NCBI RefSeq assembly: GCF_050920415.1
Contig: NZ_CP169309.1
Length of the DNA stretch: 64,000 nucleotides
Direction: 5' to 3' (one strand)
From: Escherichia coli
GTDB lineage: Bacteria > Pseudomonadota > Gammaproteobacteria > Enterobacterales > Enterobacteriaceae
Part shown: positions 1,772 to 20,839 of the stretch, piece after piece
Position numbering within the stretch: the first letter of the stretch is position 1
Layout: the number at the start of each line of letters is the position of its first letter
The notes under the pieces: generated by a model
What the model saw: only the letters and a program-made list of their open reading frames with translations
Database searches by the model: none
Told to the model about the DNA's origin: nothing
Translations under genes and position numbers: made by a program

Positions 1772-3925
1772 ATGCTAAGTCCTTTGCTCAAACGCTATAC
1801 CTGGAACAGCGCCTGGCTGTATTACGCGCGTATTTTTATTGCGCTTTGTGGAACCACAGCGTTTCCGTGGTGGCTGGGTGATGTAAAACTGACGATTCCG
1901 CTGACGCTGGGGATGGTGGCAGCGGCGCTGACAGATCTCGATGACCGGCTGGCGGGACGTTTGCGTAACCTCATCATTACGCTGTTCTGCTTTTTTATCG
2001 CCTCGGCCTCAGTAGAATTGCTGTTTCCCTGGCCCTGGCTATTTGCAATTGGTTTAACGCTCTCTACCAGCGGCTTCATTTTGCTCGGCGGTCTGGGTCA
2101 ACGCTATGCAACAATTGCCTTCGGTGCGTTACTGATCGCCATTTACACTATGTTGGGGACGTCACTGTATGAGCACTGGTATCAGCAGCCGATGTATCTG
2201 CTGGCCGGTGCCGTCTGGTACAACGTCCTGACACTTATTGGTCATCTACTGTTCCCGGTCCGCCCGCTGCAGGACAACCTGGCGCGTTGCTATGAACAAC
2301 TGGCGCGTTACCTTGAGCTCAAGTCACGCATGTTTGATCCTGATATTGAAGATGAAAGCCAGGCACCGCTGTACGATTTGGCTCTCGCCAACGGTCAGCT
2401 GATGGCGACATTGAATCAGACGAAACTCTCGCTGCTGACCCGCTTACGTGGCGATCGTGGTCAACGGGGAACGCGTCGCACGCTGCATTATTACTTTGTC
2501 GCGCAGGATATTCACGAGCGTGCCAGCTCTTCTCATATTCAGTATCAAACATTGCGTGAACATTTTCGCCACAGCGACGTGCTGTTCCGTTTTCAGCGAC
2601 TGATGTCGATGCAGGGCCAGGCGTGCCAGCAACTGTCACGCTGTATTTTGCTGCGTCAGCCTTATCAACATGATCCGCATTTTGAGCGCGCTTTTACGCA
2701 TATTGATGCTGCGCTAGAGCGGATGCGCGATAACGGCGCGCCTGCCGATTTACTCAAAACACTGGGATTTTTGCTGAACAATTTACGCGCTATTGATGCC
2801 CAACTGGCAACAATTGAATCAGAACAGGCCCAGGCACTGCCCCATAATAATGACGAAAATGAGCTCGCTGATGACAGCCCGCACGGATTGAGTGATATCT
2901 GGCTGCGTCTTAGCCGTCACTTCACACCGGAATCCGCCCTCTTCCGTCATGCGGTAAGAATGTCGCTGGTGTTGTGCTTCGGCTACGCCATCATTCAGAT
3001 AACCGGAATGCATCACGGGTATTGGATCTTGCTGACAAGTTTGTTTGTCTGCCAGCCAAACTATAACGCCACGCGCCACCGCCTGAAGTTAAGGATTATT
3101 GGTACGCTGGTAGGTATCGCCATTGGCATTCCTGTGCTGTGGTTTGTGCCGTCACTGGAAGGGCAGCTGGTGCTGCTGGTTATTACCGGCGTGCTCTTTT
3201 TTGCCTTCCGTAACGTGCAATATGCCCATGCAACGATGTTCATCACACTTTTGGTGCTACTTTGTTTTAACTTGCTGGGTGAAGGTTTCGAAGTGGCGTT
3301 ACCTCGCGTAATCGATACGCTGATTGGTTGTGCCATTGCGTGGGCGGCGGTGAGCTACATCTGGCCTGACTGGAAGTTTCGCAATCTGCCGCGCATGCTC
3401 GAACGTGCCACCGAGGCCAACTGTCGCTATCTCGATGCCATACTGGAGCAATACCATCAGGGGCGTGATAACCGTCTGGCGTATCGTATTGCCCGCCGCG
3501 ATGCACACAACCGTGATGCTGAACTGGCGTCGGTGGTATCAAATATGTCCAGCGAGCCGAACGTTACCCCGCAAATTCGCGAGGCCGCGTTTCGGTTGCT
3601 GTGCCTTAACCATACGTTTACCAGCTATATCTCAGCCCTCGGTGCTCACCGGGAGCAGTTAACTAATCCTGAAATTCTGGCGTTTCTTGATGACGCAGTT
3701 TGCTATGTTGATGACGCGCTACATCATCAACCTGCTGATGAAGAACGCGTCAATCAGGCATTAGCTGACCTGAAACAGCGGATGCAGCAACTTGAACCAC
3801 GGGCAGACAGCAAAGAACCTCTGGTCGTACAACAAGTCGGGTTATTGATTGCATTACTGCCAGAGATTGGTCGTCTGCAACGCCAGATTACTCAAGTTCC
3901 GCAGGAAACTCCTGTTTCGGCGTAA
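1772..3925 (+). CDS. yccS: putative transporter YccS (FUSC-like inner membrane protein)
   Basis: 720-aa ORF from 1763; second ATG at 1772 gives the 717-aa form I recall (MLSPLLKRYTW...); 18 bp downstream of yccF. Confidence 0.85.
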   Translation: MLSPLLKRYTWNSAWLYYARIFIALCGTTAFPWWLGDVKLTIPLTLGMVAAALTDLDDRLAGRLRNLIITLFCFFIASASVELLFPWPWLFAIGLTLSTSGFILLGGLGQRYATIAFGALLIAIYTMLGTSLYEHWYQQPMYLLAGAVWYNVLTLIGHLLFPVRPLQDNLARCYEQLARYLELKSRMFDPDIEDESQAPLYDLALANGQLMATLNQTKLSLLTRLRGDRGQRGTRRTLHYYFVAQDIHERASSSHIQYQTLREHFRHSDVLFRFQRLMSMQGQACQQLSRCILLRQPYQHDPHFERAFTHIDAALERMRDNGAPADLLKTLGFLLNNLRAIDAQLATIESEQAQALPHNNDENELADDSPHGLSDIWLRLSRHFTPESALFRHAVRMSLVLCFGYAIIQITGMHHGYWILLTSLFVCQPNYNATRHRLKLRIIGTLVGIAIGIPVLWFVPSLEGQLVLLVITGVLFFAFRNVQYAHATMFITLLVLLCFNLLGEGFEVALPRVIDTLIGCAIAWAAVSYIWPDWKFRNLPRMLERATEANCRYLDAILEQYHQGRDNRLAYRIARRDAHNRDAELASVVSNMSSEPNVTPQIREAAFRLLCLNHTFTSYISALGAHREQLTNPEILAFLDDAVCYVDDALHHQPADEERVNQALADLKQRMQQLEPRADSKEPLVVQQVGLLIALLPEIGRLQRQITQVPQETPVSA

Positions 3926-17824: not shown

Positions 17825-17921
17825 ATCGTCACTTTTACTCTAAGAAAATTGTTGCGCATTATAGCTAATAAGCGCGTCATGTCATAAAGTTGAGGGCTTA
17901 TTTTCATTTGAGGACCGCACC

Positions 17922-19031
17922 GTGGCGACATTAACCCGGCTTTTTATTCATCCTGTTAAATCGATGCGCGGCATTGGTCTTACACATGCTCTGGCAGATG
18001 TCAGTGGTCTGGCCTTCGATCGCATCTTTATGATCACGGAACTTGACGGTACGTTTATTACCGCTCGCCAGTTTCCCCAGATGGTACGGTTTACTCCTTC
18101 ACCTGTGCATGATGGCTTGCATCTCACCGCACCAGATGGCAGTAGCGCATATGTTCGTTTTGCTGATTTCGCCACACAAGACGCACCAACCGAAGTTTGG
18201 GGCACACATTTTACCGCGCGAATTGCGCCAGACTCGATCAACAAATGGTTAAGTGGATTTTTCTCCCGCGAAGTGCAATTGCGCTGGGTGGGGCCACAAA
18301 TGACCCGGCGCGTGAAACGCCACAACACTGTACCTCTGTCATTTGCTGATGGCTATCCTTACCTTCTTGCTAACGAAGCCTCGTTACGTGATCTCCAACA
18401 ACGTTGTCCGGCCAGTGTAAAAATGGAGCAATTCCGCCCCAATCTGGTGGTTTCCGGCGCGTCAGCCTGGGAAGAAGATAGCTGGAAAGTGATTCGTATT
18501 GGTGATGTGGTGTTTGATGTGGTTAAACCTTGTAGCCGCTGTATTTTCACCACCGTCAGTCCAGAAAAAGGGCAAAAACATCCGGCAGGCGAACCATTAA
18601 AAACATTGCAATCTTTCCGTACTGCCCAGGATAACGGCGATGTCGATTTTGGTCAGAATTTAATTGCCCGTAATAGCGGCGTGATTCGCGTTGGCGATGA
18701 GGTGGAAATTCTGGCAACGGCTCCGGCTAAAATTTACGGCGCAGCTGCCGCTGATGATACCGTCAACATCACGCAACAACCGGACGCAAATGTAGATATT
18801 GACTGGCAGGGACTGGCATTTCGTGGAAATAACCAACAGGTGCTGCTGGAGCAATTAGAAAATCAGGGAATTCGTATCCCTTATTCTTGCCGCGCGGGCA
18901 TTTGTGGAAGCTGCCGTGTTCAGCTTTTAGAAGGCGAAGTCACACCGCTCAAAAAATCAGCAATCAGCAATGATGGCACCATTCTTTGCTGTAGTTGTGT
19001 GCCGAAGACTGCGCTTAAACTAGCGCGTTAA
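17922..19031 (+). CDS. ycbX: MOSC-domain 2Fe-2S protein YcbX
   Basis: 369 aa with GTG start; C-terminal CRAGICGSC...C ferredoxin-like cysteine motif. Confidence 0.9.
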
Positions 19032-19570
19032 ACTGCCTGTTCGAGGCTGAAACTGTCAACATTAACCTGCGGTTTCAGCCTGTCATTCATGATTTTGATG
19101 GCGTCCCCCAACTGCATCGCGCGACCCGCAATAACAACGCAGGGTTGCGCCAACAGGCACAGTGCAGCATTTTCGCCAGATTCAACGACCAGCAAATTGA
19201 CTTGCTCGTGAGTGTCGCTCAACCAAACGCAGGCCGCATCGCCCGGCATGGGCACCCACATTTCACCATGGGAAACAAAATGCCAGCTTTTCGGCATTTG
19301 CGGTTTGAGATAACGAATTGCTACCAGCGCATTAAGCACCAGTTCGGCTTTTTGTTCTTTAGATAAATTAAAATCGCGGCATTTTTCTTCAAATGAGAAA
19401 TAGAGCGCGGCGTCGTCAACGCAAAAGCCTGCGGGAGAAAAGGCATCTGGAGTCAACATTTTGCGCGCAAAACGTGAGCGAAATAGCATACCATTGGCTA
19501 AATCGAGCATCATTCGATCGTGCTCTTCATCGTAATACCAACGCCAGTTATCGTCTGGTTTAATTCGCAT
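19028..19570 (-). CDS. zapC: Z-ring associated protein ZapC
   Basis: 180 aa from [24 protein letters not shown]...; ORF-track start at 19606 is an extension. Confidence 0.9.
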
Positions 19571-19743
19571 TTGCCTCTCCCCTACCCTATAAAACCGCAG
19601 CAACACAATCCATTGTCGCTTCGCTTAATAACCTCAACAATAAAAGTACAAAATGTCTAAATAAGCAACAGCGATGAATATAAAACAACCAGGGCTTAAA
19701 ATAAAGCCCTGATTATCTTATAAAGAGAAATTCAAAGAAATAA

Positions 19744-20754
19744 TTAGATATGGTTAACGATTTCTTTAATCAGCGGCGGTCCTTTAAAAATAAAACCAGA
19801 ATAAATTTGCACCAGTGAGGCCCCCGCAGCAATCTTTTCACGCGCAGCGATAACCGAGTCAATGCCGCCAACACCGATGATCGGTAAGCGACCGTTTAAT
19901 TCCTGAGACAAACGGCGAATAATTTCGGTGCTTTTTAACTGTAGCGGACGACCACTTAAGCCCCCAGTTTGATCGCAATTTTTCATACCCTGTACCAAAG
20001 AACGATCGAGCGTGGTATTGGTTGCAATAACGCCATCAATATTATGGCGAACTAAACTATCGGCAACCTGGATCAATTCTTCTTCAGAAAGATCCGGCGC
20101 GATCTTCACTGCGATCGGCACATATTTATGGTGCATCGCTTGCAAATCATTTTGCTTATTTTTAATCGCGGTTAAGAGATCATCCAGCGCTTCGCCATAT
20201 TGCAGTGTGCGTAGTCCTGGGGTATTCGGCGATGAAATATTGATGGCGATATATCCCGCATAAGCATAGATTTTTTCCATACAAATCAGATAGTCATCTT
20301 TACCCTGCTCCACCGGCGTATCTTTATTTTTGCCGATGTTAATACCCAGGACGCCATCATAATGGGCTTTTTTTACGTTCTCTACGAGGTTATCAACGCC
20401 AAGATTATTAAAGCCCATACGGTTGATCAAACCTTCGGCATCTACCAGACGAAAGAGACGCGGCTTGTCATTACCTGGCTGTGGACGTGGCGTGACGGTA
20501 CCGATCTCGATAGATCCAAACCCCATCGCGCCTAACGCGTCAATGCACTCCCCGTCTTTATCAAGACCGGCTGCCAGACCAAGCGGATTTTTAAACGTCA
20601 GGCCCATGCAGTTAACAGGTTTCGCAGGCACTTTCTGCCGCACCAGTGCTTCAAACGGCGTTCCTGTAATACGGCGTAATTGCTGAAAAGTAAACTCATG
20701 AGCGCGCTCTGGATCGAGCTGGAAAAGGGCTTTACGAACGAAGGGGTAGTACAT
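19744..20754 (-). CDS. pyrD: dihydroorotate dehydrogenase (quinone)
   Basis: 336 aa from [21 protein letters not shown]... Confidence 0.95.
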
Positions 20755-20839
20755 GAACTCTCCTGGATTCCCGGTGTGCAAACCGGGGGCGTATTATGTG
20801 CGAGTTCGGACCAAAAGGGAATTGACCTGCGGCAAAAAA

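Follow-up and report, generated by a model that had tools for sequence, protein, structure and literature searches.

The convergent genes ycbX and zapC of Escherichia coli end in a single tetranucleotide, TTAA, which contains both of their stop codons. This arrangement is a stop-stop overlap of the [CT]TA[AG] class. Very probably it persists because purifying selection acts on each of the two stops, and not because the overlap itself has a function, and each gene has a Rho-terminated 3' untranslated region (3' UTR) that is antisense to its partner. In the window, by which is meant the whole stretch of 64,000 nucleotides that was analysed (contig NZ_CP169309.1), the tetramer occupies positions 19028-19031 on both strands, and the surrounding sequence at 19023-19037, read directly, is gcgcgTTAAactgcc. 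The list of open reading frames places the ycbX stop, TAA, at 19029-19031 on the + strand and the zapC stop, likewise TAA, at the complement of 19028-19030 on the - strand; position 19028 doubles as the third position of CGT (Arg), the final sense codon of ycbX, and position 19031 is paired with the third base of GTT (Val), the final sense codon of zapC. The stop positions and the shared TTAA formed the core of the original prediction, and they are confirmed by the sequence, the list of reading frames and the RefSeq coordinates.

Both members of the pair are real protein-coding genes, and Pfam domains, PDB identity and RefSeq agree on the names ycbX and zapC which the prediction had assigned to them. 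The ycbX coding sequence (17922-19031, + strand) specifies a protein of 369 amino acids with MOSC_N, MOSC and 2Fe-2S ferredoxin (Fer2) domains, annotated as the 6-N-hydroxylaminopurine resistance protein. The zapC coding sequence (19028-19570, - strand) specifies an FtsZ-associated cell division protein of 180 amino acids with ZapC_N and ZapC_C domains; its open reading frame spans 19028-19606 on the - strand, and the annotated start lies at 19570. The ZapC encoded in the window is identical to the crystallised protein in PDB entries 5FO3 and 5E1L, the constructs of which cover residues 1-180. RefSeq annotates the identical 4-nt overlap in MFDS1022581, which is 100% identical to the window over the tested stretch and was the source of the annotation comparison (ycbX 17922-19031 on the + strand and zapC 19028-19570 on the - strand, in window coordinates). 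The K-12 annotation likewise has ycbX and zapC overlapping by 4 nt, the overlap is annotated in all eight of the natural E. coli records that were inspected, and both genes are annotated under every match returned by a search of E. coli genomes with a 60-mer from the window.

How little sequence freedom the shared tetramer allows can be seen by enumeration. Of the 12 single substitutions that TTAA can undergo, ten abolish one stop or both, and the resulting read-through would lengthen YcbX by 59 codons or ZapC by 35, in the window and in K-12 alike. Only two changes are harmless, a C in place of the T at 19028 or a G in place of the A at 19031; each of them converts one stop from TAA to TAG and is synonymous in the last codon of the partner. 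Two stops which share a tetramer would in this way be locked together, with almost any change lengthening a protein, and they could be separated only by a small insertion that recreates both stops.

A second lock would be supplied by the C-terminus of ZapC, which is near-invariant and would pin the zapC stop in its place, while the tail of YcbX is variable in sequence and differs in length by one residue. Across 76 species the ZapC ending [E/D]QAV (residues 176-180, window 19031-19045, - strand) is nearly invariant beside residues from about 165 to 174, and synonymous sites, that vary; the Pfam ZapC_C domain ends at residue 168, and the invariant ending falls outside it. A protease degron may lie in the free ending ...QAV, and such a degron would pin the zapC stop and with it the whole junction; this proposal is made plausible by the fact that ZapC is a reported ClpXP substrate.

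Within E. coli, the polymorphism found among the surveyed alleles is confined to position 19031, one of the two positions at which change is permitted. The description of the TTAA as palindromic holds for the window but is strain-specific, since K-12 and most E. coli carry TTAG; the overlap itself is constant. The K-12 junction reads GCGCGTTAGACTGCC, with ycbX ending in TAG and GTC as the last zapC codon. The original prediction had named a difference that moves one of the stops as the finding that would count against it; the A to G difference at 19031 in most E. coli turns the TAA of ycbX into TAG and leaves the stop where it is. Of 5,426 complete E. coli genomes, at least 185 have the TTAA allele and at least 4,174 the TTAG allele, according to a census which is approximate because it was made by megablast with allele-specific 30-mers, for which a match is possible only through a 28-mer that spans the variable base. 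A third frequent haplotype, sampled in one strain (EC052) from an identity band of about 1,092 genomes, is also TTAG. The window thus carries the minority allele of E. coli, yet this allele is the majority state of the family as a whole.

The window and K-12 diverge by about 7% around the junction, and the differences are clustered, with 22 of the 43 mismatches in the ycbX-zapC pair falling within the 300 nt of 18922-19222. The cluster includes the adjacent YcbX changes M348I, G349S and D350N, together with about 12 purely synonymous changes in zapC, the ZapC protein being the same as that of K-12. A 60-mer of the window from this segment is common to only 17 of 5,419 genomes, and the pattern suggests that 18922-19222 may be a short imported allele; in other Escherichia species, however, this segment likewise diverges more than the sequence on either side of it. 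A separate difference between the two strains lies upstream of ycbX, where K-12 has a 146-nt insertion in the rlmL-ycbX intergenic region (at window 17840-17845; positions 2001-2146 of the K-12 locus) flanked by a duplication of CTAAGA. The insertion is absent from the window strain, in which the intergenic region measures 97 nt as against 243 nt in K-12, and it looks like a small mobile repeat element; an sX9 hit in the insertion from the Rfam search was dismissed as chance, given its 25.8 bits against a gathering score of 44.

The overlap is not a chance coincidence of one genome, but is conserved among orthologous pairs. Both stops were located in the zapC neighbourhoods of species representatives, the best 80 of 288 loci, all of them from Enterobacteriaceae and drawn from genera that include Escherichia, Citrobacter, Salmonella, Klebsiella, Kosakonia, Kluyvera, Buttiauxella, Cedecea and Atlantibacter. 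The 4-nt overlap is kept in 74 of these best 80 loci. The tetramer in the 74, read in the ycbX sense, is TTAA in 60, TTAG in seven and CTAA in seven, and no other was seen; the tetramers found in nature are limited to these three because nearly all other changes destroy a stop. In all 74, the zapC frame has GTT or GTC (Val) before its stop, and the ycbX frame NNT or NNC.

In the remaining six of the 80 loci the stops are parted by gaps of 6, 10, 11, 16, 45 and 70 nt. All six gapped loci retain both C-terminal residues; examples are Raoultella (gtt TAA AACGCG CTA agg) and one strain of Citrobacter amalonaticus. The sequences imply that the gaps arose by small insertions which recreated both stops, and the differing flanking sequences indicate that such an opening probably happened more than once. 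The overlap is ancient, conserved and ordinary. Conservation in 74 of 80 loci fits selection for the overlap itself as well as it fits mutational freezing, and the data cannot separate the two.

A single genome in the E. coli collection departs from the overlap, and it does so by design. In the RF1-free strain B-95.deltaA the junction reads GCGCGT TGA GC TTA GAC, such that ycbX ends in TGA and a 6-nt insertion parts the two genes. Mukai et al. (2015; PMC4434889) named the ycbX overlap and deliberately separated it in constructing this strain, which they describe as highly reproductive, and the sharing of stops is on this evidence dispensable for a healthy laboratory strain. The pair belongs there with the other overlaps handled during recoding (yajL, ytfJ, hypB and tatD), in that the ycbX TAG of B and K-12 shares its bases with the neighbouring reading frame. 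Unlike that of B and K-12, the ycbX stop of the window is TAA, for which the edit required by UAG recoding would be unneeded.

The configuration also belongs to a class which has been known for some time. Lillo & Krakauer (2007; PMC2174442) described convergent 4-nt overlaps as consisting of CTAA, TTAA, CTAG and TTAG, with a length distribution that jumps at 4 nt. The tables of that paper contain 1,890 convergent overlaps from 58 genomes; 1,218 of these measure 5 nt or more, and by our computation from these tables the 4-nt overlaps number 672 of the 1,890 (36%), or about a dozen per genome. Codon structure alone makes it impossible for two stops to overlap by 1-3 nt. In E. coli, Huvet and Stumpf counted 75 convergent overlapping pairs. 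The first 50 kb of the window contain six convergent pairs, two of which overlap, namely yccS/sxy by 38 nt and ycbX/zapC by 4 nt; the former pair (yccS on the + strand, ending at 3925, and sxy on the - strand, from 3888) overlaps at window 3888-3925 and is likewise part of the E. coli excludome (PMC12288877). On all three of the points that were examined, namely two real convergent coding genes, one [CT]TA[AG] tetramer that contains both stops and conservation of the overlap among orthologous pairs, ycbX/zapC is a member of the stop-stop class: it has the same configuration and the modal length, and the origin of such overlaps lies largely in neutral mutation of stop codons. There is no difference in kind from the class of Lillo & Krakauer, and the present analysis contributes the history of this pair among lineages and its TTAA/TTAG polymorphism in E. 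coli.

The absence of intergenic DNA raises the question of how the two converging transcripts end. A consensus terminator scan placed no intrinsic terminator at either stop or immediately beyond it on the strand concerned, its closest hits being a palindrome at 18865-18881 and the pyrD terminator at 19690-19711, and an intrinsic or bidirectional terminator was rejected as the primary mechanism, the scan being empty at the junction and the intergenic bases numbering zero. Mapping of 3' ends was the check put forward in the original prediction, and published K-12 data supply it: the zapC end lies 92 nt inside ycbX, and the Rho regions of both transcripts lie in the coding sequence of the partner. 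In supplementary file 1 of Adams et al. (2021; PMC7815308), MG1655 1006586(+) is entered as a 3' end antisense to ycbX; it was seen in one of three conditions (LB, OD 0.4) and is weak, with 937 reads. This position was transferred by locating its 61-nt sequence in the K-12 locus and following the colinear alignment, with which an independent coordinate conversion agreed; in the window it falls at 18936(-), inside the ycbX coding sequence and 92 nt beyond the zapC stop. The zapC 3' UTR transferred from the K-12 Term-seq data is therefore 92 nt long (18936-19027, - strand) and antisense to the last 31 or so ycbX codons. For ycbX, the lists in PMC7815308 contain no curated Term-seq 3' end.

The comparison with bicyclomycin in supplementary file 2 of the same study shows increased read-through on both strands, which makes both K-12 transcripts Rho-dependent. 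One Rho region, 1006647(+), is antisense to ycbX (score 7.24, p = 1.1e-24) and places the zapC-sense peak at about 18875 on the - strand of the window; the other, 1006040(-), is antisense to zapC (Rho score 4.34, p = 7.4e-8) and gives a ycbX read-through or 3' UTR from 19032 to the transferred peak at 19482 on the + strand, which crosses most of zapC. These Rho positions are coarse, as the score is based on 800-nt windows. The two 3' UTRs lie on opposite sides of the tetramer, each within the coding sequence of the partner gene, and the claim of fully overlapping 3' UTR space accordingly stands only in part: neither gene has a private 3' UTR, but the UTRs overlap the coding sequence of the partner and not each other. 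The window strain presumably behaves like K-12 in its 3' ends and its Rho dependence.

The picture which these data favour is one in which termination is handed to Rho within the partner coding sequence because intergenic DNA is absent. There would be no room for an intrinsic terminator; each RNA polymerase, once past its stop, would run on antisense into the coding region of the partner; the untranslated RNA beyond each stop would be terminated by Rho; and the zapC RNA would then apparently be trimmed back to the end that lies 92 nt beyond its stop. Base composition is compatible with Rho, though not diagnostic of it. In the ycbX sense the C/G ratio shows a modest enrichment, at 1.2-1.6 from +1 to +250 past the stop, and in the zapC sense it is about 1.0 up to +150 and then 1.5-1.8 from +150 to +250, which is again modest.

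Several structural elements occur in the vicinity. A palindrome with a perfect 5-bp stem, AGGGAATTCGTATCCCT, lies inside ycbX at 18865-18881; it is weak and terminator-like on both strands, it coincides with the transferred Rho peak near 18875, and its synonymous sites are not unusually conserved. A hairpin GCUGA-UUUUU-UCAGC just upstream of the 3' end in K-12 is broken in the window by a synonymous change, and a stable, conserved hairpin in the zapC 3' UTR was rejected, as the folds of the window and of K-12 differ. Farther away, the intrinsic terminator hairpin of pyrD (19690-19711, both strands; CAGGGCTT-AAAATA-AAGCCCTG) carries a run of T on the - strand and, on the + strand, a T-rich tail that is weaker, and its sequence indicates that it may work in both directions. 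The pyrD terminator could catch ycbX-sense polymerases that escape Rho, and if bidirectional it would shield pyrD from the zapC-antisense read-through coming out of ycbX. No Rfam family was found at the junction; at E <= 1 the only hit is the PyrD leader (RF02373), which is far off, upstream of pyrD at 20749-20822 on the - strand, and is full-length (97.9 bits, E = 7.5e-17).

The reading which competes most directly with purifying selection on the two stops is that the pair is a functional excludon, in which the forced antisense overlap gives reciprocal repression of zapC and ycbX, proposed to act through RNA polymerase interference, RNase III cleavage of the sense/antisense duplex, or both, and in which the missing intergenic space has been selected for this purpose. 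ExcludonFinder (PMC12288877) does place zapC-ycbX in the MG1655 excludome, among 165 convergent pairs whose coverage overlaps in 50% or more of 58 RNA-seq sets; ycbX-sense transcription enters zapC for about 450 nt before the Rho stop; the arrangement is conserved across Enterobacteriaceae; and published K-12 RNA-seq, Term-seq and Rho regions agree that the transcripts overlap, as those of convergent excludons do. The coverage criterion, however, is automatically satisfied by any expressed pair with overlapping coding sequences, and for this reason a place in the excludome does not amount to evidence of regulation. What defines an excludon functionally is that interference and RNase III make the expression of the two genes mutually exclusive, and ycbX/zapC fits the descriptive definition only: unlike that of functional excludons, its overlap is forced by the coding sequences and limited by Rho, which curtails both of the antisense extensions.

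Further observations weigh against this reading. Gaps of 6-70 nt have opened in six lineages, and synonymous sites in the overlap zone are unconstrained. The entropy at four-fold third positions over the last 30 codons, taken in 10-codon bins, is 1.21, 1.07 and 1.57 for zapC (gene mean 1.38) and 1.46, 1.66 and 1.16 for ycbX (gene mean 1.46), and among 76 orthologous pairs there is no dip near the junction of the kind expected for a conserved embedded RNA signal. The literature consulted revealed no functional link between the products, one of which bundles FtsZ while the other detoxifies N-hydroxylated bases. The engineered strain B-95.deltaA is silent on the excludon question, because its edit leaves the transcript overlap in place. 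We therefore regard a functional excludon as unlikely. Its most specific form, in which zero spacing is kept for a reciprocal antisense control that links stabilisation of the Z-ring to detoxification of mutagenic base analogues, with Rho setting the reach of the silencing, is very unlikely. On the reading that purifying selection on the two stops maintains the overlap, we infer that the sense/antisense overlap has little regulatory effect.

Head-on collision of RNA polymerases at or near the junction, rather than Rho, could also be imagined to end both transcripts. The concept is established for convergent pairs of E. coli (bioRxiv 10.1101/2022.10.23.513370), and a convergent geometry with zero spacing would permit it. 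The published model nevertheless requires a stem-loop, a bidirectional terminator element which fixes the site of collision, and such a stem-loop is neither present nor conserved at the junction; bicyclomycin raises read-through on both strands, which points to Rho; and the sole mapped 3' end sits 92 nt beyond the junction. Collision-driven termination is accordingly highly improbable. Overlapping bidirectional intrinsic terminators between convergent genes (Ju et al. 2019, as named in PMC7815308) answer the same problem as that faced by ycbX/zapC, namely the ending of two converging transcripts in a shared space. In contrast to them, ycbX/zapC is without a GC-rich hairpin, A/U tracts or intergenic space, and it is Rho that ends each transcript in the coding sequence of the partner. 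That one of the stops might be an artefact of annotation or sequencing, and not the real end of its protein, such that there is no true overlap, can be given practically no credence, as both frames end alike in 74 of the best 80 loci, the ZapC ending [E/D]QAV is conserved at the protein level while synonymous sites vary, crystallised ZapC extends over residues 1-180, and all eight of the natural E. coli records that were inspected have the 4-nt overlap.

As a discovery the overlap carries little weight. RefSeq already annotates it, the class to which it belongs has been in the literature since 2007, the pair was named and engineered apart in 2015, and its transcript overlap and 3' ends have been published; the count of the overlap among species representatives and the allele frequencies in E. 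coli are minor additions. There are practical consequences all the same for anyone who works with these genes: editing or recoding either stop, or either C-terminus, also touches the other gene, and the TTAA allele of the window strain avoids the TAG problem that is found in K-12 and B strains. The pair is chiefly of value as a clean teaching case, in which shared stops are frozen mutationally, with only the wobble between TAA and TAG allowed, and in which genes that have no intergenic DNA between them pass the task of termination to Rho, inside the neighbouring gene.
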